A stretch of DNA of 18,785 nucleotides, taken from positions 1 to 18,785 of the IMG/VR virus record IMGVR_UViG_3300032307_000505, one strand, 5' to 3'. Below, in pieces: positions 4,378 to 18,785 of this stretch. This DNA is from a virus (taxonomy: Duplodnaviria; Heunggongvirae; Uroviricota; Caudoviricetes). A program made the position numbers and the translations under genes. Numbering within the stretch: the first letter of the stretch is position 1; each line of letters begins with the position of its first letter. The notes under the pieces were generated by a model. The model did not search any database and was not told the origin of the DNA. It was given only the letters and a program-made list of their open reading frames with translations.

Positions 4378-4392
4378 ATCAATTATGATACT

Positions 4393-4833: not shown

Positions 4834-4871
4834 TAATAATTTCCATTATTTTCAGTTTATTTGTTTAGTAA

Positions 4872-4900
4872 AATATATGTTAAAATTATTATAATGTCAA
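4872..4900 (-). promoter_or_regulatory. Housekeeping-sigma-type promoter TTGACA-N17-TATATT
   Basis: -35 at 4900-4895, exact 17-nt spacer, -10 at 4877-4872. Also readable as Bacteroidota TTTG-N20-TAtaTTTt. Confidence 0.6.
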
Positions 4901-4945
4901 AAAAAAAAACGTGTTATTACTCATTATAGAACAATAACACGTTTT
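4899..4945 (-). terminator. Rho-independent terminator after the 4965-5663 gene
   Basis: 13-bp arms aaaacgtgttatt (4906-4918) and aataacacgtttt (4933-4945). G-U pairs extend the stem on the minus strand, and an 11-U run follows. Confidence 0.8.
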
Positions 4946-4964
4946 AATTTGTTAAATTTTTATA

Positions 4965-5663
4965 TTAAATTGATTCTTCTAAAGTTTTTAATCTTAAGAA
5001 ACTTATTTGGTCAAATTTTTCATTTTTTAATTTATCAATTGTTTCTGATAATTTTGTTTTGATTTCAAATTCAGTTTCATTTTCCAACATAACATTAAGT
5101 TTAGTTATTGTTGTTTCTTTCAAATTTTCAAATTTAGTTTCAAGTGTTTTAGAATCTTCAGATATTAATTGGAAAAATTCTTTTTTAGATGTTTCGTCTA
5201 AATTTTCAATATACCCTCTTAATGTTTGATTAGCAATACTTACCATTGATTTAATTGGAATATTAATAGATTCTTTTACAGTTTCTTTTTTAGTCGTCAA
5301 AACTTTAATAATATTTTTCTTAGCATTTACTCTTTCAAGTAAATCTAATTTATTTGAATGAGTTAAAACATCCAAATCAATATATTTGTTTTCATTAAGT
5401 TTAGATAAACTTTTTGGCAACTTAATTGTTGGTAAAATTTTATGTAGTAAATTAATCCCTTCTTCTAAAAATTCCTTTGCGTCTTGTTCCGACAAACCTT
5501 GAGGCGTACTTAATTGGTCATATAAAGCGTAAGCTTTTGACATAGATTTATTGTTCAGAACATTATGTTTGAACTCTCTTAAAGATTTTTTGAAATCTTT
5601 CTCGTCACTATATGACTCAAGTAGATTTTTTTCGATTATGGATTTTAGGTTTCCGAAGGTCAT
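4965..5663 (-). CDS. Hypothetical helical protein directly after the portal (possible prohead core protein by position)
   Basis: 232 aa, K/E/L-rich. T4 carries core genes 67/68 between portal and protease; the analogy is positional only. Confidence 0.8.
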   Translation of the reverse strand: MTFGNLKSIIEKNLLESYSDEKDFKKSLREFKHNVLNNKSMSKAYALYDQLSTPQGLSEQDAKEFLEEGINLLHKILPTIKLPKSLSKLNENKYIDLDVLTHSNKLDLLERVNAKKNIIKVLTTKKETVKESINIPIKSMVSIANQTLRGYIENLDETSKKEFFQLISEDSKTLETKFENLKETTITKLNVMLENETEFEIKTKLSETIDKLKNEKFDQISFLRLKTLEESI

Positions 5664-5681
5664 TACACTTAATTTTATTAA

Positions 5682-5689
5682 ATAAATAT
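5682..5689 (-). promoter_or_regulatory. ATATTTAT motif upstream of the 4965-5663 gene
   Basis: Plus strand ataaatat, 18 nt from ATG 5663, touching the portal stop codon. Confidence 0.55.
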
Positions 5690-7542
5690 TAGGATTTTAG
5701 TAACTTATCCAATTCTTTTGAAATTTCTCCTAAAGAATCTTGTCCATGACCCAAATTAATCATTTGAGCACCTTCAATTAAGTTATTTTCAACTAACATA
5801 TTTAAGTTACTCATTCTAGATTCAGGGGTGATTTCAGCCTCACCTGCTGCCGGTGCCACTGTCTCTTCACCTGCTGGTGGTAACTCTTCTCCACCACCTA
5901 AATCAGCGGTTTCAAATTCACCTCCACCTCCGAATGACGGAGCGGGTTCTGATGTTTCTGTTGATGCTGCTGTTGCGGTACCCCCCGATGAATTACCATA
6001 AAGTTTATCAATATTATCAAATAAACCTGTTTTAGTGATAACTGTAGGAGTTGCTTTAAGTTCTTCACCAACTGCTCTTTCAACTCTTTGTTGTTGTAAA
6101 TCCAAACGAACTTCTTCATCAGACCAACCAAAAATATGTTTTTTGGCCCATGTTGATGAAGTGGCTTGTATACCATTTCCTGGGTCGGAAACTAAATCTT
6201 TATACAATAATACTTTTTCTTTCCAAACGTCAATTTTTAAAAGGTCAGCTTGAGTAGATGGGTTAGTTAAACCTAATGTAAAATTTTCTAATTCATCTTC
6301 AAATCCTAATAAAAATAAATGTACAATCGCAATTTTATTTAATTCCGCAATCATACTTTTTTGGATTCTATTAATAGTTCTAGCAAAACGAATATCTTGT
6401 AATGATAAATTTTTACCATCACCGACAACTTCTTCAAACCCTAAGAACGCCTTAGGAACACGAAGAGCTGTTAATAATTTCTTTTGGATGTATTCAATAT
6501 CCGCAATCTCAGAAAGGTTAGTCGCTCCAGGTAATGTTGTAATAGGGTCCGGTGCTGATGGGTCTCTAACAGGAATAAAGTAATCTTGGTCAACCGCCAT
6601 TTGGTTAAATCTCATATCAACGTTACCCGTTTTATTATCTACTATTTGTTCTCTTTTGAATTTGTTTGCAACACGTTGTACGTAAGCTTCAACATCATCA
6701 TCATTCATGTTACCTACGAATACTTTGAACATTCTTCTTTCAGGGGCTCTTGATGTACGATAAATCAACATCGCGTCCTCAGATAATAATAATTGTTTCC
6801 AAATTCTTCTTGCCTTTTCCAACATAGAAGTACCATAAGGAAGTTTTCTATCATCACCTAATAATCTAAAATGGGCAATTTCCCATGATTGGAATTCCAT
6901 ATTTTTGGTTTTCCAAGTGAAATGAAGTGCCTTTTTGTCCTTATCTAATTCTTTTGTAATATCCGTAGAGATTTTTGCACTAACACCCACTTCATGACGT
7001 TCAATTTCAATTGTCGGTAATTGTTGTACTCCAACAATACCTTTCTCAGGGTCTAATTTCAAATAAATAAAGTTATCACCATACTTACAAGTGTTTCTTG
7101 TCCACATTGGTAAGTTAGTGTTAATATCGAGTGAGTTATTAAATAAATCCGCTAATACCCCTTTTATTCTTTTTGATTCAGAATAAATTTGTAAAATAAA
7201 ACCATCTTCATTTGTTGTTGTTGATTCTTCTGCGTAGATATCTAACGCAGCTGAAATCTCAGGGGTATACTCCATTGACTCGTAATCGTATTGTGCCGAT
7301 AATCTTGATGGTTCGTAATAGATTGCTTGTGAATATAAATTATTCTCAACTTTCGCCCATTGATTTGTTAAATAAAAGGTTTGTTGTGCTTGTAACCTTT
7401 CTTTTTCGTATTCTTCCTTACTATTAGTACGTAATAACTCCTTTTTATCAAACTTAAATGTTGGATAATCTTGGTTTAATAAAGAGTTTGGCCCAAATGT
7501 TTGGGACAATCTTTGCCATACTGTTAAATTTTGTTCACTCAT
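5689..7542 (-). CDS. gp20: Portal protein, T4 gp20-like, with a Gly/Ala/Glu-rich C-terminal tail
   Basis: PEISAALDIYAEES, YGTSMLEKARRIWKQL.L.EDAMLIYR.SRAPERR.F, D.FIPVR...I.TLPG..NL.EI.DIEY..KKL..AL.VP motifs. Confidence 0.96.
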   Translation of the reverse strand: MSEQNLTVWQRLSQTFGPNSLLNQDYPTFKFDKKELLRTNSKEEYEKERLQAQQTFYLTNQWAKVENNLYSQAIYYEPSRLSAQYDYESMEYTPEISAALDIYAEESTTTNEDGFILQIYSESKRIKGVLADLFNNSLDINTNLPMWTRNTCKYGDNFIYLKLDPEKGIVGVQQLPTIEIERHEVGVSAKISTDITKELDKDKKALHFTWKTKNMEFQSWEIAHFRLLGDDRKLPYGTSMLEKARRIWKQLLLSEDAMLIYRTSRAPERRMFKVFVGNMNDDDVEAYVQRVANKFKREQIVDNKTGNVDMRFNQMAVDQDYFIPVRDPSAPDPITTLPGATNLSEIADIEYIQKKLLTALRVPKAFLGFEEVVGDGKNLSLQDIRFARTINRIQKSMIAELNKIAIVHLFLLGFEDELENFTLGLTNPSTQADLLKIDVWKEKVLLYKDLVSDPGNGIQATSSTWAKKHIFGWSDEEVRLDLQQQRVERAVGEELKATPTVITKTGLFDNIDKLYGNSSGGTATAASTETSEPAPSFGGGGEFETADLGGGEELPPAGEETVAPAAGEAEITPESRMSNLNMLVENNLIEGAQMINLGHGQDSLGEISKELDKLLKS

Positions 7543-7570
7543 GATTTAAATTTACTTGTTTCCTCAGTAA

Positions 7571-7578
7571 TATAAATA
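7571..7578 (-). promoter_or_regulatory. TATTTATA motif upstream of the portal gene
   Basis: Plus strand tataaata in the terL-portal gap, about 29 nt from ATG 7542. Confidence 0.6.
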
Positions 7579-7581
7579 GTA

Positions 7582-9342
7582 TTACCCACCAAATAACCAC
7601 CCGTACTTTTGGTAATCTTCTTTACTTGGTCCTTGATTCATTGGGGATTGTCGACCCATCTGAGGTACCATTGGATTAAAAAATTCGGAAGCGTTTTTAT
7701 TTTCATTAACCGCTGTTGACCAAGAGTTTAACATTGCTCGAGTATGATTAGTAACCTTTTCTAATGATTGAAATGATTTCTCGGCAACATATATTGCCAT
7801 AGCAATACTCATAATACAATCATCGTGATGCATTTTTTGATGGTCAGGTCTACCGTTAATGTAAACAAATGTATTCATTTCGTTATAAAGACGACTTGAA
7901 TAAATTCTAAACTTATGTCTCATCGCCTCTTCAAATGATGCAATAATTTGTACCCTTTTAGAGTTAAAGTTAATTCCGGGGATTTTTTCATTTATTTTTG
8001 GGTCATACTTCCATTTATTGGTTGTATCGACTCCATCAACATATAAACCTCCTTGATAGTTCATTTCTTGGAGTTTTCTTGCAGTTGAAACCCCCATACC
8101 TCCTGTGATATCAACAACACAATATGCATTATACATAGTACCCCATTTATACGCAATTTCCGCTAAAATGTCCGGAGGGACTTTTCCAACATATTCTAAT
8201 ACCTGTTCTCTAGTGTCAAAATCAATAATCTCAACACTTGAAAAATCCTCAGAATCCCCACGAGATACGTCACAACCCATAACATACTTATGTCCGTTAA
8301 CCGGTTCTTTAAAAATCCAAAGACCACCACCCATCATTTTCGCTTGTGGTTCTCTTACTTGATTTTTGGCAATATCTTGCATTAAATCAGAATCAAATAC
8401 GTTATCTCCGGAACCTAAGAAGTTACATTCTAACTCCTGAGCAACCTTACGTCTATCGTATTTTAATTTCTTAACCATACCTTCAAACCAAGCGGAACAT
8501 GGTTTGTATCCATCTTCAATGTACTTTGTAACTATACTATGGTCTCTTTCAAATGGATTTGACATTGATAGGTCAATGATAACATCATCAAGGTTATATT
8601 CTTCCCTATTTAATAAAAAGTGGACTAAATCATGAGTTTTCACCATATACAAATCTTTTGTATATCGAGGGTCACGATACCAAAACATTTCAGAAATTTT
8701 GAAATCATTCATATTTCTAAGTGCTTGGTCATAAATCTCATAATAGATTGGGTCATAACCATTTGGTGTTGAAACCACAATTACTTTACCCCCTGTAGAT
8801 AGGGATGCCATACACGCTGACCAGAAGTCTCCGTCAGCTTCAATAAACGCAGCCTCATCAAAGATAAGAATGGTTGGGGTATACCCCCTTAATGCATCTC
8901 GAGATGTCGCAACGGCTTTAACTTCACACCCATTTGTTAATTTAAAATGTCGTTGTGAATTTTTTTCATTTGAGAATCCAACTCCAACCCAACTCGGCCA
9001 TTGTTCTGTAAAACCTCTAACCTTGTTTGCCATCTCCATGGATGTATCCAATTTATTGGCAATGATTAGAATTTTTTCAGGTTTGGTTTTTTTGGCAAAT
9101 ACAAGTTTCTTAGATGCCCACGCAGCGGTTACAGTAGATACACCCGCCTGTCTATACTTAAGGGCGATATTTTCATTGTAGTTATCGTAATCCTCAATCA
9201 AAGATATTTGGTCCGGAAATAAATCTAACGGAACATATTTTGATACCGTATTATCGTATGTCTGTAAATAAGTACGAAGTGCGTAGGGAGTATTCCTCAT
9301 GCACTTCGTTATCTCAATAATTAATTGTTCTTTATTATTCAA
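7582..9342 (-). CDS. gp17: Terminase large subunit, T4 gp17-like (TTG start)
   Basis: KYRQAGVST (Walker A region), ILIFDEAAFI (Walker B), VSTPNG (coupling motif), MGCDVSRG..EDFS and HDDCIM (RNase H-like nuclease Asp residues). Confidence 0.96.
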   Translation of the reverse strand: MNNKEQLIIEITKCMRNTPYALRTYLQTYDNTVSKYVPLDLFPDQISLIEDYDNYNENIALKYRQAGVSTVTAAWASKKLVFAKKTKPEKILIIANKLDTSMEMANKVRGFTEQWPSWVGVGFSNEKNSQRHFKLTNGCEVKAVATSRDALRGYTPTILIFDEAAFIEADGDFWSACMASLSTGGKVIVVSTPNGYDPIYYEIYDQALRNMNDFKISEMFWYRDPRYTKDLYMVKTHDLVHFLLNREEYNLDDVIIDLSMSNPFERDHSIVTKYIEDGYKPCSAWFEGMVKKLKYDRRKVAQELECNFLGSGDNVFDSDLMQDIAKNQVREPQAKMMGGGLWIFKEPVNGHKYVMGCDVSRGDSEDFSSVEIIDFDTREQVLEYVGKVPPDILAEIAYKWGTMYNAYCVVDITGGMGVSTARKLQEMNYQGGLYVDGVDTTNKWKYDPKINEKIPGINFNSKRVQIIASFEEAMRHKFRIYSSRLYNEMNTFVYINGRPDHQKMHHDDCIMSIAMAIYVAEKSFQSLEKVTNHTRAMLNSWSTAVNENKNASEFFNPMVPQMGRQSPMNQGPSKEDYQKYGWLFGG

Positions 9343-9355
9343 AAGATTGTATTGG

Positions 9356-10651
9356 TTATTTAGGTCTCGATATACCTAAACTACCCAAGAAATCATCTAA
9401 TCCATCGTCTTCGTCTTCATCATCTGAATCAAATCCTTCATCTTCTTTGTAATCTTCAAATTCTTCTTTTAGTTTCATCGCCTCTTTCATGATTTCATTA
9501 AATCTTGATTTGGCTTTAGACACTTTTGAAGAATCTTCAGAGATTGCATTTCCAATTATTTCTAAAAACTCTTGGGCTTCAATTTGGTATAAAACAGTAT
9601 GAAACCAGTTTATTAAACCTTTATTTTCAGGTTCGTATATTTCGTCAGGTAATGAAAACCTAATTCTTTCAACAATTTCAGGTCCAATTCTTAATTGCAT
9701 TGGTTCATTTTCCAAAGTATCTGTTTGACCCATAACTTTTTGAGCCAATTCAGGGTTTTTAGGTAAACCATGTCTACCTTTAGCCTCTTCTAACCCTTTA
9801 ATTATTTCGTGGCATAAAATAGGGAAGATTAATCCTTGTGCTTCGATAACGGTATCAGGTTTTTCTTCTCCACCTTCATCATCTCCACCCTCATCATCAT
9901 TATCTTTCAATTTAACTTTTCCCGCAACTCCTTGTCCTGATTGACTCATCATTTCAATCATTTGTTCCATACTAAAATATAAGAAATCATTGATTGCCAT
10001 TATCCCTAAATAATCATTATAAAGAGATGGGTCAATTTCGTCAAGTCTTGCTTTAATATCCGGTTTTTGAAAAATATAATGTCCTTTCTTAGCAGCACCT
10101 TGAATTAATGCGTTAATAATGTTTCTTTTATGTTTTTCTAATTCGAAAATTTCATCGTCGGTTAAATCATCAATATCAAATGATGGTATTTCGAATTCGT
10201 CCTCTTCTTCTTCCTTATCATCTTCTTTGTCTTCAGGTTTCATTCTGAAGTCTGATGTGTCAATTCCCGGTCCTAAAATCGCTTCAATTTCATACCAATC
10301 ACTTGGAATTTCAGTTTCTTCTAATGAAGCATCTATCGCCAATTGTTCTAATTCATCTTTGTGAGCAGACTCAATTCTCATGATATTAGGTAATTTTCTC
10401 ATCATTTCTTGGAATATCATTCCTTGAACTTGTTGAGAACTTAAATCTTCTCTTCCGGTCACTTGACTTAATTTCTCAGCAACTTTTTGAAAACGATTAC
10501 TAATTAATCTTTGAACATCCGCCTCTTTTTTTCTCATGGCAGGATTCTGAGCATATAAATTTTCAGGACTAGCAAGTTTTCTTTCCAAATTTGGGTCCAT
10601 TCTTTCAGGTCTATCCCCGTAATCTAATTGTTCTTTAATTTTCTTCGCCAT
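9356..10651 (-). CDS. Hypothetical protein, 431 aa, with acidic tracts
   Basis: Long ORF tightly packed against its neighbours; no family recognised. Confidence 0.85.
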   Translation of the reverse strand: MAKKIKEQLDYGDRPERMDPNLERKLASPENLYAQNPAMRKKEADVQRLISNRFQKVAEKLSQVTGREDLSSQQVQGMIFQEMMRKLPNIMRIESAHKDELEQLAIDASLEETEIPSDWYEIEAILGPGIDTSDFRMKPEDKEDDKEEEEDEFEIPSFDIDDLTDDEIFELEKHKRNIINALIQGAAKKGHYIFQKPDIKARLDEIDPSLYNDYLGIMAINDFLYFSMEQMIEMMSQSGQGVAGKVKLKDNDDEGGDDEGGEEKPDTVIEAQGLIFPILCHEIIKGLEEAKGRHGLPKNPELAQKVMGQTDTLENEPMQLRIGPEIVERIRFSLPDEIYEPENKGLINWFHTVLYQIEAQEFLEIIGNAISEDSSKVSKAKSRFNEIMKEAMKLKEEFEDYKEDEGFDSDDEDEDDGLDDFLGSLGISRPK

Positions 10652-10653
10652 TA

Positions 10654-11490
10654 TTATTTATTTAAAATTTGCATGATTACGTCTATAACCTTATCTTTAG
10701 TTTGTTCCGGAGAAGGTTTTTTTGCCTTTGGTGCAGGATTAACTCCAGGATTTGGATTTTTACCCGGATGACTTGGTCTTGTTCCCGGCTTAGTAGTCGG
10801 TTTTGTTCTTGTTGGTGCAACTGCAGGGTCTGCCTCGTTTAAATAATTCATAAGTTCCTTTTTAGTTATTTTTGGTGGTAAATTTCTTTCCACAATTTTA
10901 ATAATTTCATTCTCAAGGAACAAAGATACGGGATTTTTTTGTTCTTTCAAAGATTTTTTTACATCCTTAACGCATCTCTCATATTTATTATTTTCTTTAG
11001 CACTCCATAAATGTCTTTCTCTAGTACCAAATTCTTTACCTAATTGTGATGTACAAATGGCCCATGGATTATCTTCATCTTTTTTAGACTTCTTTTTCTC
11101 TTCGGACATACCAATCATTTTACTATCGTGATTTTCAGGTGAAGTGTCATCGTCCATCCCATCATCAGACGCTTGATATTCGTCATGAGAACCTTGTTGC
11201 CCTGTATATGCTTGGTCAGCATCTAAATCAAAATCATCATCTTCAGACATTTCAGATTCTGTTGCTGTAACCATAACTTCTTTAGTGTTTGGGTCTTGTG
11301 TAATATTTAAATTACCAACCTTACCACCTGATGGACCTACTTTATAAGTTTTTTTAGCAGGAACTTCGGTTACTTGTTCATTAACAAGTTTACTATGTAA
11401 TACATTAATTTGCGATTCTGTTAATTTCCCAACAGTTTTTGAGGATAACCCCTTTTCGATAAGTTCTAATGCTTTAATATTAATTTTCAT
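10654..11490 (-). CDS. Hypothetical protein, about 278 aa, with acidic and Pro/Lys-rich segments
   Basis: ATG 11490 preferred over the track's 11508 because it overlaps the upstream stop (ATGAAAATTAA). Contains NPWAICT...YERCVK and a PAVAPTRTKP...PNPGVNPAP tract. Confidence 0.8.
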   Translation of the reverse strand: MKINIKALELIEKGLSSKTVGKLTESQINVLHSKLVNEQVTEVPAKKTYKVGPSGGKVGNLNITQDPNTKEVMVTATESEMSEDDDFDLDADQAYTGQQGSHDEYQASDDGMDDDTSPENHDSKMIGMSEEKKKSKKDEDNPWAICTSQLGKEFGTRERHLWSAKENNKYERCVKDVKKSLKEQKNPVSLFLENEIIKIVERNLPPKITKKELMNYLNEADPAVAPTRTKPTTKPGTRPSHPGKNPNPGVNPAPKAKKPSPEQTKDKVIDVIMQILNK

Positions 11491-11875
11491 AAATAACTTT
11501 CTTTTCAAATTCTAATACCAAATCTCTTTCGTAGAGTTTGTCTTTTATTTCTTGTTCCGGAACCCCAAATCTAAACACCATTCTTTTCTTAATGTTATCG
11601 TCATCAGTTTCCCATGCTAATGCAATTACATCATCCATTGCATCCATTACTGAAAAAAAATCGGAGTTTTGTATCAATTCCAATTTTACATCAGTATCTC
11701 TCAAAACTCCTACTTTTTTAATATATTTTAAATCAGGTGGTTGAGGGTATCCATTAGATGGACGATTATCCCACGATTCACCCCACACGTCTAAAGTGTC
11801 TGAGAATATGAATTCGTAAAGATTGTCTCCCTTATAATTAGGACCTAAACCATTTACGTAAATCAAATAACTCAT
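11480..11875 (-). CDS. Hypothetical protein, 131 aa
   Basis: ATGA overlap with the upstream gene indicates translational coupling; globular-looking sequence. Confidence 0.85.
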   Translation of the reverse strand: MSYLIYVNGLGPNYKGDNLYEFIFSDTLDVWGESWDNRPSNGYPQPPDLKYIKKVGVLRDTDVKLELIQNSDFFSVMDAMDDVIALAWETDDDNIKKRMVFRFGVPEQEIKDKLYERDLVLEFEKKVIYEN

Positions 11876-13176
11876 GACAATAATCCTTCAGGTGTGATTT
11901 TAATTTCTTTTCCTTTATTTTCAAAAACTAAATTATTTTTATTTGTTTTTCCAATAATTTTAGCACTTGTATTTTCTTCTAAAAATTTCTGAGATGCTAA
12001 TTCTTGTTCAATAGTTTCAGTTAATTTAACAACAGATTTCATTTGTCTTCTAACTTCCGAAATTGTTCTTGTTTTTTTCTCAGCAATTTTTTGTTTGTTT
12101 TCAACAATTTCTTGTTTAGTAACTTCAAAATATTTTGATAATACTTTATCTACTTTTGATTCCCCAAAAATACTATCGAAGATTGCCCCATTTCCGAAAT
12201 CAGAATCTCTTTTTTTAAATTTTGAAAAATTGTAAGAATCTTCATCATTATAAAAATCGTCAGGATTAACATCATCAACATCGTCATACTCATAACCTTC
12301 TTCCATATCACCTTCAACTGCTACATCCATATCAGCTTGGATATCTTCAACTTCACTATCGTCAGTTAAGTCTTCACCATCCATATCGTCACCACCTAAA
12401 TCTTCAGTTTCATCTTCAAATTTAGTTAAAATATCTTCTCTATCCTCTTCTGTTAATTCAGCCAAGTCAAATGAAGATAATACCATATTAATAACATATT
12501 TAATATCTTCAGAAGTCATACCTTCTTGAGAATCTAATGTTCTAATTTTTTGAGTTAATTTACCTGTTAATTTTTGAATTGATTTAAATGTAACATTTTC
12601 TTCAGTATCAACTTCAGTATCTGTATCAACATCAACTTCCGCATCAACATCAACTTCAGTATCTTCTAATCCTAAGTCATCATCTGTCATATCTTCACCA
12701 CCCATATCACTCATTGGTGATGATGGTAATTCCGGAGATGGAACCGCTGGTGGAGCTGAAGGAACTTCAGCAGGTACCGGCATATCCATTTTTGGTTTTG
12801 GAGTTTTTAAAGTGAATTTTTTTTGTTCACCATACAATGATACACCTTCTTCATTTTCGTTAATTCTATTTAACTCACCTGCAACTAAGTTTAATCTTTT
12901 GAATGCTTGTGAATATGAAGAATAGTATTTTCTATTTTTCATTGGCTCAATATAATCTGTTTCAGATTCTGAGATTGTTTTCTTAATGATATAACCTTGT
13001 CTCTCTTTAACAATTTCATATTTATTACCATCCGCAAGACCAATAGAATATTGTGATTTTGCAGTTTCATTTATACGATTAGGGATTACCTCGTTAAAAC
13101 GAGCAATCTCCATAATTCTTTTAAGTTTTTGGTCCCCTGTTAGTTTTTCACTACCAATTGGTTTTAAATCTCCCAT
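11872..13176 (-). CDS. Hypothetical acidic, partly disordered protein, 434 aa (candidate internal head protein)
   Basis: Ordered blocks alternate with Pro-rich and D/E-rich tracts, like the scaffold gene. Confidence 0.85.
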   Translation of the reverse strand: MGDLKPIGSEKLTGDQKLKRIMEIARFNEVIPNRINETAKSQYSIGLADGNKYEIVKERQGYIIKKTISESETDYIEPMKNRKYYSSYSQAFKRLNLVAGELNRINENEEGVSLYGEQKKFTLKTPKPKMDMPVPAEVPSAPPAVPSPELPSSPMSDMGGEDMTDDDLGLEDTEVDVDAEVDVDTDTEVDTEENVTFKSIQKLTGKLTQKIRTLDSQEGMTSEDIKYVINMVLSSFDLAELTEEDREDILTKFEDETEDLGGDDMDGEDLTDDSEVEDIQADMDVAVEGDMEEGYEYDDVDDVNPDDFYNDEDSYNFSKFKKRDSDFGNGAIFDSIFGESKVDKVLSKYFEVTKQEIVENKQKIAEKKTRTISEVRRQMKSVVKLTETIEQELASQKFLEENTSAKIIGKTNKNNLVFENKGKEIKITPEGLLS

Positions 13177-13197
13177 TGTATATTAATATTTGTTTTT

Positions 13198-14031
13198 TTA
13201 ATTATTTAGTCCGTTAAACCCACCTAAGGTTATTCCGTTTAATTGTGCGTATGGTACCCCATTTGCGTCGGTAAAGATAGGGTGAGGTGCGATAGCACCT
13301 TCAGGTGCAGTACCTCCACTAAATCCACCTAATATTTCGATGGTATAAGCATATTGATTATCAACACTAATTCCTGATAACGGCCACGGAGTATTTGATG
13401 GTGTTGGAGTATTTGTTGGTGTTGGTGTATTAGTCGGTGTTTGCGTTGGTGTACCCGTTTGTGTTGGAGTATTAGTTGGAGTATTAGTTGGCGTACCTGT
13501 ATTAGTTGGTGTGTTTGTAGGTGTAGGTGTTTGAGTTCGAGTATTGGTCGGTGTATTCGTTGGTGTACTAGTGTTAGTTGGTGTATTTGTTGGTGTTTGA
13601 CTTGGTGTATTACTCGCAGTTATTGATGGTGTTGGTGTTTGAGTACGAGTATTAGTTGGAGTATTTGTTGGCGTACCTGTTTGAGTATTTGTTGGCGTTT
13701 GGGTTGGGGTTGGTGTTGAGGTATTAGTCGCTGTTACCGATGGAGTTGGGGTATTTGTTGGTGTACTTGTTTGAGTCGGTGTTGGTGTCGGAGTTGGATT
13801 TGCAGATAAACAAGGACCACATTCACCATAATTTGTTGACATTGTTGCAACATAATCAGAACCTGTTCCTGGCTCCGCAGTATCAACCACTTCATAACAT
13901 CCTTGAGTTGTTACACCTGTGAATGTTAAATAATAATTTCCTCCCACTGCCGGAAGTGATGAACTGTTAAATTCTACGGTTAGTGATGAACCACCCGCGC
14001 AAGGTGCTATAAGATATGTAACGAATGCCAT
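13198..14031 (-). CDS. Thr/Pro-repeat (mucin-like) protein with a Cys-containing N-domain; likely virion-associated
   Basis: About 137 aa of TPTNTPT-type repeats between a 4-Cys N-terminal domain and a Gly-rich C-terminal domain. Confidence 0.85.
13387..13797 (-). repeat. Degenerate coding repeat encoding T-P-T-[N/Q/P] units
   Basis: ggtgtt/tgttgg/attagttgg units with variable third codon positions. Confidence 0.9.
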
Positions 14032-14044
14032 TTAATTTTTTATT

Positions 14045-14053
14045 TATAAATAT
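14045..14053 (-). promoter_or_regulatory. ATATTTATA motif upstream of the Thr/Pro gene
   Basis: Lies within the palindrome tatttataaata (14041-14052), about 14 nt from ATG 14031. Confidence 0.6.
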
Positions 14054-14085
14054 ACGATTATTACCAATTATTATTAATTTAACGA

Positions 14086-14817
14086 CTAATCTTCTATTTT
14101 TCTTTCAACTGATAGTTCTTTATCAGTACCTTTATTAATCGCATCAAATAATTTTTCAATGTGTCCTGACCTTCTAAGATATTTAAAAACTAAATTTTCA
14201 TAAGACAATTCACCATCACCTTCCAAACCGGATTGACGATATTTTTTCAACTTATCTTTAATTAATTCGAGTGATTTTACATCACCATCTTCAATTGTTT
14301 TATCAATTTTCTCAGTCCAATTTTGAATCTTATCTTCAAGAACTTTTTTATTAATGTCTAATTTTGATTTTTTTGGGGCATTTACCCAAGAATTGTTCAT
14401 AATAGAGTAAACCCCAGAACTAACGTGAGGTTCTTCAGAATCTTGAGCGTATAACTCAACATCATAACCAAATATTTTAATATTATGTTTGTCGTTAAAA
14501 ACTTGTTTTTTTAAATTAAACAATTCTTTATATAATTCATCGTCATCACCATATTCATCCATATCAACTACAATATGTAAATCGAAATCGGAATATTCAG
14601 ACCAATTAAAGTTAGACAAAGAACCGGTTAATATAACGTCCTCAACAAATACATCTTCACCCAAATATTCCACAAACTCATCGGCAATACGCTCAAGCGC
14701 TTTTCTAACTTTAGGAACCATTACCGCTTTTTTAGGGTCATCAGGATTTTCCCATACTTTAGGATTTAAAGTTGGTTGAATTGAAAAACTATCTATTATT
14801 TGTTGTAATTTACTCAT
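14086..14817 (-). CDS. Nucleotidyltransferase, DNA polymerase beta superfamily
   Basis: ILTGSLSNFNWSEYSDFDLHIVV matches hG[GS]x9-13DhDh. The third acidic residue is probably in YDVELY; helical C-terminal region. Confidence 0.85.
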   Translation of the reverse strand: MSKLQQIIDSFSIQPTLNPKVWENPDDPKKAVMVPKVRKALERIADEFVEYLGEDVFVEDVILTGSLSNFNWSEYSDFDLHIVVDMDEYGDDDELYKELFNLKKQVFNDKHNIKIFGYDVELYAQDSEEPHVSSGVYSIMNNSWVNAPKKSKLDINKKVLEDKIQNWTEKIDKTIEDGDVKSLELIKDKLKKYRQSGLEGDGELSYENLVFKYLRRSGHIEKLFDAINKGTDKELSVERKIED

Positions 14818-14820
14818 TAT

Positions 14821-14828
14821 TATAAATA
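14821..14828 (-). promoter_or_regulatory. TATTTATA motif immediately upstream of the nucleotidyltransferase
   Basis: Sense strand TATTTATA-ata-ATG. Confidence 0.55.
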
Positions 14829-15071
14829 CTACAATTTCTTATACTTGTAGGCTTTTGAAATATCATTTACAAAAAATTTTCCTTGGGACTCGGCCATTCT
14901 AAATTTTGTGTAGGTTTGATGAGGTACCTCATCATACTCATACTTGAATCCATTATTAAATTCAACAACAAGTTTTTTTGTTTCAGTGTCGTATTCTGTT
15001 CGTTTAATGTTTGACGATTTTATTTCATTAATAATCTTCGTCCCCTTGATTTCCTCTCTCGTAATCCCCAT
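14829..15071 (-). CDS. KTSC-domain protein
   Basis: SSNIKRTEYDTETKKLVVEFNNG..YEY..VP...Y..F..AES.GKFF is the typical KTSC pattern. Confidence 0.9.
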   Translation of the reverse strand: MGITREEIKGTKIINEIKSSNIKRTEYDTETKKLVVEFNNGFKYEYDEVPHQTYTKFRMAESQGKFFVNDISKAYKYKKL

Positions 15072-15360
15072 CGCTTAGTGGTGTTAGTTCGTTTATGTTT
15101 TGTAATATTTGTTTTAGATAGTCATCAAATTCTTCGACTTCAAAATCAAAACCTAAGTCTTTTGTTTGTCGAAATAAAGACCTTTTTTCATCATTAAAAT
15201 CTTGGTGAAACGTCATTAATTGTGCCGAGTAATATGGTGGATTTTCTAAATCCTTTTCACTCCACCCTTCTGATTGGAAATATTGTCTTATCTTAAGATA
15301 TATTTCAATTATGCGTTGTAACCCAACACTTCTACTTAAAAATTTTTCAAATGGTTTCAT
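15028..15360 (-). CDS. Hypothetical protein, 110 aa
   Basis: Has its own TATTTATA motif; overlaps the KTSC gene by 44 nt. Confidence 0.75.
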   Translation of the reverse strand: MKPFEKFLSRSVGLQRIIEIYLKIRQYFQSEGWSEKDLENPPYYSAQLMTFHQDFNDEKRSLFRQTKDLGFDFEVEEFDDYLKQILQNINELTPLSDGDYERGNQGDEDY

Positions 15361-15363
15361 ACT

Positions 15364-15372
15364 TATAAATAT
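15364..15372 (-). promoter_or_regulatory. ATATTTATA motif in a 16-bp divergent intergenic gap
   Basis: Sense strand TATTTATA-agt-ATG for the 15360 gene; 5 nt before the opposite-strand ATG 15377. Confidence 0.55.
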
Positions 15373-15376
15373 AACT

Positions 15377-15946
15377 ATGGACGCAACTGAAACATTTATT
15401 AAACACGGAGATTACAATGTCGAGAATATTTTAAAAATAATCAACGACAATAATTTGGATTGGGATGAATTTACCGATAGACAAAAAAGGTATGGAAGTG
15501 AACATATTCACACAAAAACAATTCCAATAATTTTTGATAAGTCATTTAATTTTAACCATTTAAAAATTATCCCAACTACTCATTATCCTTTATTTAAAGA
15601 AGAGATAACCAAAATTGAAGATATCATTAAACTCAATACCGGAGAAAATGGTAGAATAATGAGAGCAATATTAGTTAAGTTAACCGCAGGAGAATCTATC
15701 AGACCTCACGTTGATATTGTTGGATTTAGTTTAGTTGTTTGTCGAAGAATTCACATACCAATTCAAACAAATGAAGATTGTTTTTTTACTGTAGGTGATG
15801 ATAAAAGAAATCTAAGATTAGGTGAACTATGGGAAATTAACAACGACAAACAAAAACACTCCGTTGATAATTTTGGAGAAACCGATAGAATACATCTAAT
15901 TGTTGATTGGATTGAAGAATCTTTATTTGAATCATATGGTATCTAA
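15377..15946 (+). CDS. Aspartyl/asparaginyl beta-hydroxylase-family 2OG-Fe(II) dioxygenase
   Basis: IRPHVD (HxD), RRIHIPI, GELWEINN, KHSVDN (distal His) and DRIHLIVD motifs. ATG 15377 avoids overlap with the divergent gene. Confidence 0.88.
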   Translation: MDATETFIKHGDYNVENILKIINDNNLDWDEFTDRQKRYGSEHIHTKTIPIIFDKSFNFNHLKIIPTTHYPLFKEEITKIEDIIKLNTGENGRIMRAILVKLTAGESIRPHVDIVGFSLVVCRRIHIPIQTNEDCFFTVGDDKRNLRLGELWEINNDKQKHSVDNFGETDRIHLIVDWIEESLFESYGI

Positions 15947-16613
15947 AACACAAAAAATAATATTTTTATACCCTCCAAAAACCGCATCCAATTCCTTACG
16001 TTATTGCTTAAATGAAAATGGGTTTATTGAAGATTCTCAAAATAACACATATCTCACACCAAAACTTCATTTAAAATTAGATGAAATTATGGTTGCCTAT
16101 GATATTGAGTCTCTTGACGGATATAAAGTTATACAAGTAACTAGAAATCCTTATGATAGAATGATATCCGGATATTACCATCAAATTAGGTTTTTTAATA
16201 ACACTGACTTTGAATCGAGTACTTCAATTAGTGGATACTCATTTGACAAAATTTTACGTCATTTAAACTCAACAAAAAATTCTAAAAATTTTATTGATGA
16301 TTTTTATGGTGATTCATCTCATCACATCAAGTATGTTATTGACAATAAAAACTCTTGGGGTGGAATTCGATTTTACCACACTCAAAGTAGTTGGAAAAAT
16401 GTAGATTGTGATTTTTATCATTTTAAGTTAGAGGATTTAAATAAAGACATCAAACCGTTACGTGATTTAATCAACTTGCCCTTATCCCCCTTACATCAAA
16501 TTAATACTAACCCTAAAAAAGTTGATTATGAAACCCACAAAACCCCTCAAAATAAATTAATCATTCAAAATTTATTTTTAGAAGATTTCGATATTTTTGG
16601 ATACGAAAAATAA
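15936..16613 (+). CDS. Sulfotransferase (Sulfotransfer_2-like)
   Basis: IIFLYPPKTASNSL (5'-PSB loop), TRNPYDRMISGY (3'-PB motif) and C-terminal EDFDIFGY. Start overlaps the hydroxylase stop (ATGGTATCTAA). Confidence 0.85.
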   Translation: MVSKTQKIIFLYPPKTASNSLRYCLNENGFIEDSQNNTYLTPKLHLKLDEIMVAYDIESLDGYKVIQVTRNPYDRMISGYYHQIRFFNNTDFESSTSISGYSFDKILRHLNSTKNSKNFIDDFYGDSSHHIKYVIDNKNSWGGIRFYHTQSSWKNVDCDFYHFKLEDLNKDIKPLRDLINLPLSPLHQINTNPKKVDYETHKTPQNKLIIQNLFLEDFDIFGYEK

Positions 16614-16636
16614 AACCCCACCTATTAAGATGGGGT
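16606..16636 (-). terminator. Rho-independent terminator of the 16657-17133 gene
   Basis: Minus-strand RNA ACCCCAUCU-UAAU-AGGUGGGGU followed by UUUAUUUUU. Confidence 0.85.
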
Positions 16637-16656
16637 AGAGATTATATTATTATGTC

Positions 16657-17133
16657 TTACCTTGTTCTTGATAAAATATTTTTTATTGGGTTCATAAACA
16701 TTAATTCTAAATTTGTTGTTGAATCTACTTTGTACTTTAATTCCCCTGACAAAGCCTCACAAAAATCTTCATCACCTCCATAGTAATCACCGTAGTATTT
16801 TATCATAGTACAGATGTCTTCAGCACTTGTAAGATTTTTTTCAAGTGCCATACCAGCTTTACTTCCTGAACTTTTTTTATTCTCCCCACCACCAAAATTA
16901 CTGAGTGGATTTTCCCCTCCATAAATAGCTTGTTGAAATTCACTAGCTGCTTTTCGTGCTCTTGGATTGTTTGTATCTAAATTAGTTTGTTTTGAACAAA
17001 TACTACAAACACTTTTATAATTCCCAACCGATTTAAGTAAAAGATTTTTTAAGTTGTTATTGGCTTGTTCTTTAATCACTCTTCTAACCAATCTTGTTAA
17101 ATCAGATTCGGTTAATCTTATTATTTTTCCCAT
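16657..17133 (-). CDS. Hypothetical protein with the N-terminal tag MGKIIRLTESDLTRLVRRVIKEQ
   Basis: Stand-alone unit with its own TATTTATA motif and terminator. Confidence 0.85.
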   Translation of the reverse strand: MGKIIRLTESDLTRLVRRVIKEQANNNLKNLLLKSVGNYKSVCSICSKQTNLDTNNPRARKAASEFQQAIYGGENPLSNFGGGENKKSSGSKAGMALEKNLTSAEDICTMIKYYGDYYGGDEDFCEALSGELKYKVDSTTNLELMFMNPIKNILSRTR

Positions 17134-17149
17134 ATTAATTTTATTTTAT

Positions 17150-17158
17150 TATAAATAT
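17150..17158 (-). promoter_or_regulatory. ATATTTATA motif upstream of the RLTESDL-tag gene
   Basis: Plus strand tataaatat, about 17 nt from ATG 17133. Confidence 0.6.
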
Positions 17159-17180
17159 ACCATACCACCCAAAAATTATT

Positions 17181-17213
17181 AAAATAAAAAACCCCACCTA
17201 TTGGGCGGGGTTT
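17181..17213 (-). terminator. Rho-independent terminator of the UVR-motif gene
   Basis: Minus-strand RNA AAACCCCGCC-CAAUA-GGUGGGGUUU followed by UUUAUUUU. Confidence 0.85.
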
Positions 17214-17217
17214 CTTT

Positions 17218-17595
17218 TTACTTTCTTAATTCTTTCAACTCGTCACGAATTTCAATCGACCTTTCAAAGTTGTGTTCCTTAATTGATTGTTTCAATTCTT
17301 CTTCAAGTTTATTAATCATGTCTTGATTAGACTCCAATTTTTTAATTTGGTCTCTAATTTCAACCGCTTTTTCAAAGTCTTCATTTTCGATTGCCAACTC
17401 AAGTTGTCGTTTTAAACCATTTGCACCTTTAGGTGTCTTTGGTTCATTACTTCTATAATAAGTAGTAACTTTCATAGTACCATCTTCAGATACTTTAGTT
17501 TGTGATTTCCATTCTCCTAAACGAGAATCGAACTGAGCGAACATATCATCAAACGCTCTTAAAATGTCATTAAAGTTTTTTTCGTTTCCAAACAT
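17218..17595 (-). CDS. Protein with two tandem UVR (UvrB/UvrC) coiled-coil motifs
   Basis: LKRQLELAIENEDFEKAVEIRDQIKKL and LEEELKQSIKEHNFERSIEIRDELKEL both match L..A...E.FE.A..IRD.I. Confidence 0.88.
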   Translation of the reverse strand: MFGNEKNFNDILRAFDDMFAQFDSRLGEWKSQTKVSEDGTMKVTTYYRSNEPKTPKGANGLKRQLELAIENEDFEKAVEIRDQIKKLESNQDMINKLEEELKQSIKEHNFERSIEIRDELKELRK

Positions 17596-17626
17596 AATTT
17601 TATTTTTTTATTCAGATTTATTTTTA

Positions 17627-17634
17627 TACCTTTG
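17627..17634 (+). promoter_or_regulatory. Possible Bacteroidota-type -7 element TACCTTTG facing the ClpC-like gene
   Basis: Exact TAnnTTTG match, but no clear -33 TTTG at the expected spacing. Confidence 0.3.
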
Positions 17635-17644
17635 TCGTATTCAA

Positions 17645-17673
17645 ATAATATACCATTCGAATAAATATGTCAA
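17645..17673 (-). promoter_or_regulatory. Housekeeping-sigma-type promoter TTGACA-N17-TATTAT for the UVR gene, with an ATATTTAT motif inside its spacer (17661-17668)
   Basis: -35 at 17673-17668, 17-nt spacer, -10 at 17650-17645. Confidence 0.55.
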
Positions 17674-17710
17674 TATGTCAGGTTAAAAAAAAATTTACTG
17701 ACAATTTGTC
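17668..17710. promoter_or_regulatory. Operator-like TGTCA/TGACA cluster between the divergent UVR and ClpC-like genes
   Basis: TGTCAataTGTCAG-N16-CTGACAattTGTC, with a perfect inverted core TGTCAG (17676-81) / CTGACA (17698-703). Confidence 0.45.
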
Positions 17711-17768
17711 GAAAAATTAGGATAAGAATAAAATTTGATGGACCTTTGTAAAATAAAATTAGAAAACT

Positions 17769-18785
17769 ATGAACGACTTAATGGACGACAACGAAAAATC
17801 AGGTAACAAAGCACAAAAACAAGCTATGGACACAAACACTCCTGTATTGGACAACTTCAGTAGAGACTTAAATAAACTAGCTGAGGCGGGTAAATTAGAC
17901 CCTGTAATTGGTAGAGATGCTGAGATTTTGAGAATCGCACAAATCCTTTCTCGTAGAAAAAAGAATAACCCTATTATCATAGGTGAACCCGGGTGTGGTA
18001 AAACCGCACTTGTTGAAGGTCTTGCTATGAAAATTGTAAGTGGAGAATGTCCAAGAAACTTAGTGGACAAAAGAATCGTAAACCTTGACTTAACTTCAGT
18101 TGTTGCAGGTACAAAGTATCGTGGACAATTCGAGGAAAGAATGAAAGTCATTATCGAAGAACTAAGTGCTAATCCAAACATTATTGTGTTTATCGATGAG
18201 ATTCACACATTAGTTGGTTCAGGTAATTCATCAGGTTCAATGGATGGTTCAAACATCTTCAAACCAGCACTTGCTCGTGGAGAGGTTCAATGTATTGGGG
18301 CAACAACTCTTGATGAGTTCCGTAAAAACATTGAAAAAGATGGAGCATTGGAACGTAGATTTCAAAAAGTAGTGGTAGAACCATCAACCGTAGAAGAAAC
18401 AATCCAAATCCTTAAAAATGTTCGTGATAAATACGAATCATACCACAAGGTATTGTATAGTGACGAAGTTGTTGAAACTTGTGTTAAGTTGGCAGACCGT
18501 TATATTACAGACCGTGAGTTCCCGGATAAAGCATTTGACATTTTAGATGAGGTTGGGGCTCGTATGCAAACTGAAATTAAAGTTCCTGAAGTAATTGAGG
18601 AATTAAAAAAGAAAGCCTCTGAGATTAAGATTGAGAAAATGGAAGTGGTAAAGAAACAAAACTACGAACAAGCTGCTCAACTTAGAGATAAGGAGAAAAA
18701 GTTATTGGTTAAACTTGAGGCTGAGAAAGAGAAGTTTGCAAAACAAATGGATTTAGAGAAACAAACAATCGCTCTTAATACCGTT
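17769..18785 (+). CDS. clpC: ClpC-like AAA+ chaperone/unfoldase lacking the N-terminal Clp-repeat domain (3' end runs off the right edge)
   Basis: Not in the ORF track. Hand translation: MNDLMDDNEK...TPVLDNFSRDLNKLA..GKLDPVIGRD.EI.RI.QILSRRKKNNPIIIGEPGCGKT (Walker A)...IVFIDEIHTLVG (Walker B)...GATTLDEFR..IEKDGALERRFQ...DR.FPDKAFDILDE, then a short UVR-type M-domain (KQNYEQAAQLRDKEK). In-frame TAG at 17760-62. Confidence 0.92.
   Translation, partial: MNDLMDDNEKSGNKAQKQAMDTNTPVLDNFSRDLNKLAEAGKLDPVIGRDAEILRIAQILSRRKKNNPIIIGEPGCGKTALVEGLAMKIVSGECPRNLVDKRIVNLDLTSVVAGTKYRGQFEERMKVIIEELSANPNIIVFIDEIHTLVGSGNSSGSMDGSNIFKPALARGEVQCIGATTLDEFRKNIEKDGALERRFQKVVVEPSTVEETIQILKNVRDKYESYHKVLYSDEVVETCVKLADRYITDREFPDKAFDILDEVGARMQTEIKVPEVIEELKKKASEIKIEKMEVVKKQNYEQAAQLRDKEKKLLVKLEAEKEKFAKQMDLEKQTIALNTV

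Follow-up and report, generated by a model that had tools for sequence, protein, structure and literature searches.

Background

ClpC is normally held inactive and is switched on by adaptors that grip its N-domain. In the ClpCs that have been studied, this domain binds the adaptors and phospho-arginine and additionally stabilises the resting state, while the adaptor MecA binds partly to the M-domain. Proteins with UVR motifs also act in ClpC pathways, i.e., McsA in Firmicutes and ClpF in chloroplasts. Other Hsp100 proteins are paired with small heat-shock proteins, such as ClpB-DnaK with IbpA/B, or ClpK/ClpG, beside which an sHSP20 is encoded in heat-resistance islands. The cellular ClpCs of S. 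aureus, B. subtilis (ClpC/MecB) and M. tuberculosis (ClpC1) have two AAA+ modules and the D2-small domain, which are also found in the phage ClpC that is described here. Moreover, they share with it the KYR and GYVG pore loops, the short UVR-type M-domain with its aromatic tip and the [IVL]GF loop, and the Bacteroidota ClpCs are its nearest sequence relatives (55-60% identity). The cellular proteins, however, have a Clp_N repeat domain of ~145 residues, in place of which the phage ClpC has a leader of ~23 residues.

An engineered N-domain-deleted S. aureus ClpC (PMC12583610, EMBO J 2025) consists of the linker, NBD1, M-domain and NBD2, as does the phage ClpC, although the construct is laboratory-made and Gram-positive, whereas the phage protein is natural. 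The hexamers of the S. aureus enzyme without the N-domain bind ClpP but are proteolytically silent, as their M-domains are paired head-to-head via F436; M-domain-linked ring dimers and ClpP rods are formed, and proteolysis is seen only with F436A. When the F436 contact is broken, the N-domain-deleted enzyme degrades an SsrA-tagged protein well (PMC12583610). Among phages, for the moraphages, which are large aquatic phages of Flavobacteriia, the part of the report cited here lists a Clp ATP-binding subunit among the near-core genes (24 genomes) and HSP20 in some of the phages (PMC12619734, Arch Virol 2025). Their habitat and predicted host are the same as those of the phage in this study, a likeness that does not imply membership in that lineage; in the same part of the report, the Clp gene is annotated as ClpA, and the loss of the N-domain, a double-UVR neighbour and an Hsp20 slot are not mentioned (PMC12619734). 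No description of an N-domain-less phage ClpC or of its UVR neighbour was found in the literature searched, the coverage of which was incomplete.

The window, which is the whole stretch of 18,785 nucleotides analysed here, makes up the initial 18.8 kb of a jumbo-phage fragment that is 82.8 kb long. Its source is a giant freshwater phage of Bacteroidota, and the locus belongs to a protein-quality-control module that is conserved in a clade of ~310-325-kb Bacteroidota phages, from which four genomes (309-326 kb, rated complete by CheckV) were used as the complete relatives. The following features were recognised in the window:

17186..17216, minus strand, intrinsic-terminator-like hairpin (13 pairs and a T run) directly after the double-UVR stop codon
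17218..17595, minus strand, double-UVR protein P0002, 125 aa, with two UVR motifs (PF02151)
17596..17768, no strand, divergent intergenic region of 173 nt between the double-UVR gene and ClpC
17668-17680, TGTCA-N3-TGTCA in the divergent intergenic region
17699-17711, TGACA-N3-TGTCG in the divergent intergenic region
17760..17762, plus strand, TAG stop in frame with the ClpC ATG 17769 and 9 nt ahead of it
17769..18785, plus strand, 5' part, 339 of the 671 codons, of the N-domain-less phage unfoldase (ClpC type), with the S. aureus and B. subtilis ClpCs as its best solved relatives
18606..18704, plus strand, UVR motif (PF02151) of the ClpC M-domain, residues 280-312

Phage ClpC and the loss of its N-domain

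The complete ClpC ORF, which was recovered from the contig (17769-19784), encodes 671 aa and is an intact ClpC-type double-ring unfoldase that was acquired from a Bacteroidota-like host and has lost its N-domain. An initial sequence-only reading of this DNA had placed a TAG 9 nt before ATG 17769 and about 23 residues before the TPVLDNF motif, and this was borne out, as the stop lies at 17760-17762 and exactly 23 residues, acidic and basic in character, precede the motif. The 45 nt upstream of the start contain two additional stops in the same frame, and because only 173 nt separate ATG 17769 from the start of the opposite-strand gene, there is no room for an N-domain of ~150 aa. A Pfam search of the protein returned AAA, AAA_lid_9, the UVR motif, AAA_2 and ClpB_D2-small, but not Clp_N (PF02861), which was detected in the control genomes; both the proposed absence of the Clp-repeat domain and the proposed retention of the UVR-type M-domain (PF02151 at 280-312) thus hold. 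The Walker motifs are GEPGCGKT and FIDEIH in NBD1 and GSTGVGKT and LFDEVEKA in NBD2, and the pore loops are KYRGQFEE and GYVGY. Recovery of the 3' part, which the sequence-only reading had called for, revealed NBD2 (AAA_2, ClpB_D2-small) with the GTGIGFS loop, whose IGF at residues 535-537 aligns with the ClpP-docking [LIV]-G-[FL] loop of S. aureus ClpC. Additionally, Y299 aligns with S. aureus F436, the aromatic tip of the M-domain. The solved ClpCs of S. aureus (748 bits) and B. subtilis (716 bits) align with the phage protein from their residue ~145 onwards.

The same architecture was found across the relatives. The N-domain is absent from all 79 related phage copies and present in all 79 complete cellular Bacteroidota ClpCs, which are 839-906 aa long. 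Among 80 related viral loci, the called ORFs are 616 to 719 aa long, a span that takes in contig-truncated and over-extended calls, and each of the 74 distinct full-length phage copies starts 16-50 residues ahead of TPVLDNF. The M-domain and its aromatic tip (75 Y, 4 F) were kept in 79/79 copies, as was the ClpP-docking loop in the form of IGF, VGF or LGF. The mean column identity over 42 phage copies is 78%. In the phylogeny, the phage ClpC clade is monophyletic with respect to the Bacteroidota ClpCs (SH-aLRT 100), while a branch with a support of 94 groups two huge phages of 634-642 kb with the cellular proteins, a placement for which the AU test (p 0.33) does not reject a single clade. One loss of the N-domain in phages and several losses are both compatible with these results. 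That the short ClpC results from faulty assembly or sequencing, or represents a decaying pseudogene, is a reading for which the stop codon itself speaks and nothing further, and it has practically no chance of being correct: the identical architecture recurs in 79 related loci from many samples, in which the short acidic N-terminal peptide, the Walker motifs and the pore loops are conserved, and the starts of the relatives together with the full-length cellular ClpCs refute it. The read error at 17760 that had been considered can therefore be dismissed, because all 79 phage copies lack the N-domain. A separate N-domain gene, the other way in which a normal architecture might have been restored, was not detected with PF02861 in the 82.8-kb contig or in the four complete relatives, while the control genomes were positive.

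The double-UVR protein and the slot beside ClpC

The divergent neighbour that had been described from the sequence as carrying two UVR motifs and a short N-terminus was confirmed to be the minus-strand ORF 17218-17595 of 125 aa, with NFNDILRAFDDMF at its N-terminus. PF02151 matches it in two stretches (E 4e-15, 55.4 bits versus a cut-off of 21.5) and matches 33/33 aligned members of its family. The predicted layout comprises an N-terminal F-rich helix, a short beta-hairpin and three helices with the two UVR motifs, with a mean pLDDT of 63 for the AlphaFold2 model. The family consists of 231 clusters (50% identity, E<=1e-10) and was found on phage-like contigs only. A tblastn search against the GenBank phages gave no match, PHROGs holds no family for P0002, and no resemblance to known adaptors was found in Pfam, NCBIfam or PHROGs. 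Searches for fused ClpC-UVR or Hsp20-UVR proteins and for longer forms of P0002 were also negative; two profile hits that seemed to be fused, P0174 (GT2 fragment) and P0248 (methyltransferase fragment), have the appearance of recombinant or chimeric gene calls and not of Hsp20 or ClpC fusions.

The double-UVR protein, an optional accessory restricted to phages, alternates with Hsp20 in one slot beside ClpC. The double-UVR gene was the divergent neighbour of ClpC in all 67 distinct contigs with a flank; in the UVR-centred set, for which 36 viral loci with the protein were retrieved, this was the case in 34/34 loci with a flank, at start-to-start distances of 171-219 nt. The 78 ClpC-centred loci comprised 37 with the double-UVR gene, 20 with Hsp20 in the same slot, 21 with neither and none with both. 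Therefore, of the pairing for which the sequence-only reading had proposed a synteny survey, the constant divergent arrangement stood and its fixity did not. The slot Hsp20 (PF00011, E 1e-11 to 1e-14) has the same position and orientation as the double-UVR gene and, among the complete genomes, was found solely in the Hsp20-type genome and solely at the slot beside ClpC. The ClpC tree implies 12 or more changes in the state of the slot. As the double-UVR gene is missing from 41 of the 78 loci, ClpC evidently works without it, and since the M-domain consensus is identical in the UVR-type, Hsp20-type and empty-slot loci, there is no sign that the M-domain has co-adapted with the slot type. Between a conserved 110-aa gene and ClpC, the cargo is variable and in this window also includes genes for a sulfotransferase and a hydroxylase as well as a 158-aa ORF, and adjacency to ClpC is for this reason weaker evidence than it appears. 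The extra cargo was inserted beyond the double-UVR gene and never between it and ClpC.

Phage ClpP and tmRNA

Two further components of protein quality control are encoded on the contig. The protease gene is located as follows:

contig 47305-48051, phage ClpP (PF00574, 173 bits), ~27 kb from ClpC

Judging by its profile scores and catalytic residues, this gene is a true ClpP and not a ClpP-like prohead protease. The NCBIfam ClpP models scored 180-227 bits, all under their curated equivalog cut-offs, versus 61-71 bits for the prohead-protease models, and the Ser-His-Asp triad is intact (ASMG, H and D align with the solved ClpP). ClpP was found in three of the four complete relatives; the remaining one has a ClpC with a VGF loop yet no ClpP. 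The tmRNA gene lies 2 kb downstream of ClpC (Rfam, 67 bits) and was found within 4 kb of ClpC in 10/15 sampled loci, including all three slot types. Its predicted tag, GNVLDKLSAVGFIRTEEVAVA, would be virus-specific and 21 residues long.

Possible roles of the double-UVR protein

The best explanation that we can offer, and one that we hold tentatively, is a quality-control module with the N-less ClpC, of which the double-UVR protein is an optional accessory cofactor. The two UVR hairpins of P0002 would contact the UVR-type M-domains of the phage ClpC, and the F-rich helix at its N-terminus would be the part that holds client proteins. Because M-domain pairing silences the N-deleted S. aureus ClpC, a protein that caps the M-domains would switch a natural N-less ClpC on. 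Such a cofactor would modulate the motor rather than be required by it, because the phages with an Hsp20 or an empty slot manage without the double-UVR protein. The earlier proposal that the double-UVR protein is an adaptor is partly supported by the sequences, and only in part, since the protein is optional (37/78) and the slot can hold Hsp20 or be empty; as was suggested initially, it may replace the lost N-domain and contribute to escaping the host adaptors, with host-protein degradation or virion remodelling as putative roles. A phage-run tag-and-destroy pathway in which the double-UVR protein is the switch appears rather improbable. In such a pathway, the tmRNA would add its tag, the ClpC pore would take the tag with neither an N-domain nor a host adaptor, and the N-less ClpC would feed the tagged protein to the phage ClpP. 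The double-UVR protein would cap the M-domains and free the motor from head-to-head ring dimers, which would make it nature's equivalent of the N-deleted F436A ClpC that was made in the laboratory, while Hsp20 would be the alternative solution for client delivery in the sister phages.

It is doubtful, though not as improbable as a tag-and-destroy pathway, that P0002 is a stand-alone holdase analogous to Hsp20, with no specific contact with ClpC and a shared role in stress or late infection; nor is it any likelier that its F-rich helix binds unfolding proteins while the UVR coiled coil only builds oligomers. The double-UVR and Hsp20 genes are mutually exclusive in one slot and one orientation, the P0002 N-terminus resembles the N-termini of the phage Hsp20s (FNDLFDTFF), residues 1-43 were paired with residues 1-52 of these proteins by profile-profile alignment (P = 0.01), and the M-domain shows no co-adaptation. 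However, the Hsp20 profile match is weak (HH-suite probability 4%), HSP20 matched 0/33 family members even at E<=10, P0002 has neither an alpha-crystallin domain nor a C-terminal IxI motif, and the UVR motif common to P0002 and the ClpC M-domain would have to be a coincidence. That the double-UVR protein may be a remodelled Hsp20 is a weak lead, and the ESM Atlas feature search with P0002 residues 1-56 gave no usable match. In the sHSP-Hsp100 pairs, a small holdase gene adjoins the Hsp100 gene, as it does in the 20 Hsp20-type phage loci, but ClpB, ClpK and ClpG do not dock ClpP whereas the phage Hsp100 keeps the ClpP loop, and in this window the holdase slot is occupied by a non-crystallin UVR protein. 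An action on a host protein, either by mimicking a UvrB/UvrC domain against excision repair or by docking on the M-domain of the full-length host ClpC, is unlikely, and equally so that the gene adjoins the phage ClpC merely because the spot is a cargo hot spot. Weak matches in a single range (E 1e-5 to 5e-11) connect the UVR motifs with the UvrB C-terminus, the UvrC UVR region and McsA alike, the region upstream of ClpC is variable, and the closest complete relative has two small ORFs ending in a single UVR motif far from ClpC; the divergent position in 67/67 contigs with no cargo in between and the restriction of the family to phage-like contigs argue against it. Least credible of these roles, and very improbable, is that of a McsA-type activator of a protein arginine kinase. 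It follows the automatic JGI names, which label many family members 'protein-arginine kinase activator protein McsA', and the NCBIfam McsA model does match the UVR part (E 5e-11), but NF053706 scored 42.7 bits versus a cut-off of 210 and covered only model positions 139-174, which are the UVR motif. McsA has zinc fingers and acts via the kinase McsB, and P0002 has neither part; as it contains no cysteine, the CxxC pairs are absent. Moreover, the N-less ClpC lacks the N-domain pArg-binding sites that were described for ClpC (PMC12583610). ClpF differs as well, having a YccV-like domain and working with ClpS1 and the ClpC N-domain, all of which are missing from P0002 or its N-less ClpC.

As for the accessory cofactor, the points that count against it are that the N-domain-deleted data come from a Gram-positive enzyme and not from the phage protein, that neither ClpC-UVR or Hsp20-UVR fusions nor M-domain co-adaptation were seen and the double-UVR gene is missing in 41/78 loci, and that one complete relative combines ClpC (VGF loop) with the lack of ClpP. 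For ClpC 1-350 and the double-UVR protein (alignments of 42 and 33 rows, respectively), a complex prediction scored 0.18 versus a mark of 0.32, which is neutral on binding.

The N-domain deletion occurs naturally in a large clade of giant phages, in which it is kept under selection together with the phage ClpP and tmRNA, and it allows the control of an N-less ClpC, and what such a motor degrades during infection, to be studied in a natural setting. The neighbour slot points to two candidate cofactors, the two-UVR protein and a small heat-shock protein. Should the UVR protein bind the M-domains, Hsp100 proteins would have a regulator of a new kind; otherwise, what is left is an accessory gene in a variable region beside an already reported phage Clp ATPase.

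Intergenic region and expression

Contigs in the metatranscriptomes of three studies overlap with both genes, i.e., with the UVR gene at 17263-17603 and 17221-17575 and with ClpC starting at 17684, and none of them bridge the intergenic region. They represent relatives at 90-97% identity with word shares of <=0.17, from which the strand, transcript ends and level are not readable, and give a weak hint of expression of both genes. The TGTCA repeat was considered as a regulon mark for ClpP and tmRNA, a role that was rejected as the 82.8-kb contig has the element at the ClpC locus and nowhere else. The exact palindrome TGACAA-N0-3-TTGTCA was absent from this window, and all 80 host clpC loci lack it in their first 3 kb. 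In the UVR-type and Hsp20-type loci alike, TGTCA-type half-sites recur ~97/89 and 67/59 nt ahead of the start of ClpC.

N-domain loss in the phage ClpC

The phage ClpC-type unfoldase starts at ATG 17769, 9 nt downstream of an in-frame TAG (17760-17762) that has two further in-frame stops just 5' of it, and 23 residues stand N-terminal to the NBD1 entry motif TPVLDNF, as the sequence-only reading had proposed. The window makes up positions 1-18785 of an IMG/VR record of 82,785 bases with a CheckV completeness of 32%, which indicates that the record is a fragment of a jumbo phage. The 3' part of the gene was recovered from it; the ORF ends at contig position 19784 and encodes 671 aa with both Walker A/B pairs, the KYR and GYVG pore loops, the AAA_2 and D2-small domains of NBD2 and a GTGIGFS ClpP-binding loop. 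The best solved relatives, the ClpC of S. aureus (748 bits) and B. subtilis (716 bits), align to the phage protein only from their residue ~145, just past their N-domain. Y299 aligns with S. aureus F436, the aromatic tip of the M-domain (a UVR-type coiled coil), and IGF lies within the ClpP-docking loop of S. aureus ClpC.

A scan of IMG/VR for ClpC relatives returned more than 597 viral stretches, from which the best 80 loci (identity 67-97%) were taken. The ORF calls in these 80 loci spanned 616-719 aa, contig-truncated and over-extended calls included, and the 74 distinct full-length viral copies among them start 16-50 residues N-terminal to TPVLDNF, with a short conserved leader that is acidic and then basic. 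Complete cellular Bacteroidota ClpC ORFs had 839-906 aa in all 79 cases. The Clp_N model matched the control genomes but neither the 82.8-kb contig nor any of four relatives with genomes of 309-326 kb (CheckV 100% complete). Because short copies occur across the clade and Clp_N is missing from the contig and the four complete genomes, a read error and a separate N-domain gene are both excluded, and the loss of the N-domain stands. ClpC-like genes that lack the N-domain (701, 707 and 657 aa) are also present in three huge uncultured GenBank phages (634, 642 and 484 kb, respectively), where no UVR gene adjoins them.

The nearest relative among the fetched loci was a 309-kb contig (ClpC identity 97%), and the closest cellular ClpC sequences (55-60%) all belonged to Bacteroidota, mainly Flavobacteriales. 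This lineage is similar to that of the "moraphages", large freshwater phages of Flavobacteriia, for which the published description already reports a Clp ATP-binding subunit as a near-core gene and HSP20 in some members (PMC12619734).

The double-UVR protein family

The divergent neighbour of ClpC, P0002, is encoded by an opposite-strand ORF (17218-17595) of 125 aa, which has the N-terminus quoted earlier and the two UVR motifs claimed for it (PF02151, E 4e-15). A word-based search placed 226 proteins in its family, and an exhaustive profile search of a 50%-identity library gave 231 clusters at E<=1e-10 and 70 at E<=1e-30. Every member found comes from a metagenome, and the long contigs among their carriers extend to ~315 kb. 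Their layout is fixed: the N-terminal motif MF..R.NFNDIF..FD.MF, a middle segment W.KET(Y/F).S.DG...(I/V)T that was modelled as a beta-hairpin, and a C-terminal part in which the model places the two UVR motifs on three helices, the fold being only indicative at a mean pLDDT of 63. The aromatic residue of the ClpC M-domain tip has a conserved counterpart in each of the two UVR motifs. The automatic JGI name "McsA" was rejected, as P0002 has no cysteine and scores 43 bits with the NCBIfam McsA model against a cut-off of 210.

A strong terminator-like hairpin directly follows the stop codon of the double-UVR gene. Of the RNA-library contigs, which come from close relatives, those of two studies span this gene alone, one of a third study begins ~100 nt 5' of the ClpC ATG, and none from the three studies spans both genes. 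The hairpin and these contigs weakly hint that the double-UVR gene looks monocistronic.

The 309-kb relative G001 has two more small ORFs that close with one UVR motif each and show no other relation to P0002: L208:486-917 (-), 143 aa, with the tail ...AIEDEDYELADKIRKQLEKF, and L209:452-799 (-), 115 aa, with the tail ...LNDENYEEAAKIRDKIKEIS. In this group of phages, the UVR hairpin may serve as a portable module at protein C-termini. Two profile-search matches, P0174 and P0248, are chimeras that join a truncated piece of a glycosyltransferase or a methyltransferase to the hairpin-plus-2xUVR part; recombination in the variable region, or faulty gene calling there, probably produced them.

Exchange of UVR and Hsp20 genes beside ClpC

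Each of the 34 UVR-centred viral loci whose flank was long enough had ClpC as the divergent neighbour, at a start-to-start distance of 171-219 nt, and the UVR gene occupied the divergent position (the slot) in 37 of the 78 ClpC-centred loci with flank. The two sets share four contigs and thus comprise 67 distinct ones, in every one of which the double-UVR gene adjoins ClpC divergently. The proposed pairing is therefore without exception where the UVR gene occurs, but it is not obligatory for ClpC. In 20/78 ClpC loci, the same position and orientation is taken by an Hsp20/alpha-crystallin gene (115-133 aa, PF00011 E 1e-11 to 1e-14, C-terminal I-x-I/L motif). Neither gene was present in 21/78, where conserved KTSC and 110-aa genes or another small ORF adjoin ClpC, and no locus (0/78) had both. 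Among the complete genomes, two of the UVR type lack Hsp20 genome-wide, the Hsp20-type genome has its sole Hsp20 at the slot and no UVR protein, and the empty-slot genome has neither. The slot state changed at least 12 times on the ClpC tree and sister pairs differ, which implies that its contents are often exchanged between co-circulating phages. The UVR protein resembles the phage Hsp20 at its N-terminus (profile P 0.01), and on this resemblance a common origin is possible; Pfam gave no signal of one and no fused form was found.

Possible role of the double-UVR protein

The suggestion that P0002 is an adaptor that would dock on ClpC is supported only in part. A functional tie is favoured because adjacency is strict in the carrying loci, because the UVR motif also forms the M-domain of the neighbouring ClpC and because the alternative occupant of the slot is a small heat-shock protein, a class of Hsp100 partners. 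Small heat-shock holdases are known to accompany Hsp100 machines, IbpA/B with ClpB and sHSP20 beside ClpK/ClpG. However, over half of the ClpC loci do not have the double-UVR protein, the M-domain consensus showed no distinguishable difference among the three slot types (79 copies) and the UVR-ClpC region is a cargo hot spot, all of which weaken the adaptor reading. Considering both sides, we tentatively favour an optional ClpC cofactor; a holdase that works independently of ClpC seems unlikely, and a UVR mimic that is directed at the host slightly more so.

How an optional cofactor might act is suggested by S. aureus ClpC, which without its N-domain forms planar hexamers and binds ClpP, yet is proteolytically inactive because its rings pair head-to-head via the M-domains (PMC12583610). 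When F436A is added to this construct, GFP-SsrA degradation equals that of the fully activated wild type, the SsrA degron being recognised by the pore and not by the N-domain (PMC12583610). As the F436-equivalent aromatic tip is kept in 79/79 phage copies, the phage ClpC should meet the same M-domain lock, and P0002, with its two UVR hairpins, could open it.

Phage Clp ATPases, ClpP, tmRNA and HSP20 are already known. Our analysis adds the mutually exclusive and repeatedly switching Hsp20/UVR swap, the finding that every phage copy keeps the ClpP loop and the residue equivalent to F436, complete genomes without any N-domain gene, how large the double-UVR family is and how uniformly it is built, and a connection to the phenotype published for ClpC with its N-domain deleted (PMC12583610).

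ClpP and tmRNA

The contig carries further genes beyond ClpC:

Downstream of ClpC: M20-like peptidase
Downstream of ClpC: 406-aa protein of no known family
Contig 21939-22329 (L003:4939-5329 in the retrieved locus), outside the window, 2.2 kb downstream of ClpC: tmRNA (Rfam RF00023, 67 bits)
Contig 47305-48051: ClpP (PF00574, 173 bits)

NCBIfam ClpP models score far above prohead-protease models for the phage ClpP, whose Ser-His-Asp triad aligns with that of a solved ClpP. Of the four complete relatives, three have ClpP. In the remaining one, G004 (321 kb, locus L098), ClpC lacks the N-domain and retains a VGF ClpP loop, but there is no ClpP, Hsp20 or double-UVR gene; its ClpC would have to rely on host ClpP or act alone.

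The tag of the phage tmRNA was read as GNVLDKLSAVGFIRTEEVAVA; ARAGORN did not call the tmRNA at 21939-22329. A tmRNA lies less than 4 kb from ClpC in 10 of the 15 sampled loci, with all three slot types represented. At the tmRNA place in sister loci, there are group I intron matches of 72-98 bits (L110:9113-9340, L086:9130-9346, L074:8753-8969), and in L110 the intron and tmRNA (8765-9142) matches overlap at the 3' end of the latter. An intron may interrupt some tmRNA genes of these phages.

Upstream elements and neighbouring genes

Two elements of TGTCA/TGACA half-sites with 8-nt spacing, ~30 nt apart, lie 5' of ClpC (window 17668-17680 and 17699-17711). They are conserved in loci of both the UVR and the Hsp20 type, have a single occurrence in the 82.8-kb contig and were not found upstream of host clpC; one RNA-library contig starts at the first. 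They may be an operator or a phage promoter element. The neighbouring genes are:

Window 15311-16613, + (opposite strand): Asp/Asn beta-hydroxylase-like gene and sulfotransferase gene
Window 16657-17133, -: 158-aa ORF of no known family

The hydroxylase-like and sulfotransferase genes are an insertion that separates the UVR-ClpC pair from the conserved KTSC/110-aa genes and is missing in most related loci. Only the first 24 residues of the 158-aa ORF (M..IIR.TE.DL...V.RVIKEQ) are common to otherwise different ORFs in the variable region of L078, L102 and L112, a pattern that suggests variable cargo proteins with a conserved N-terminal tag.
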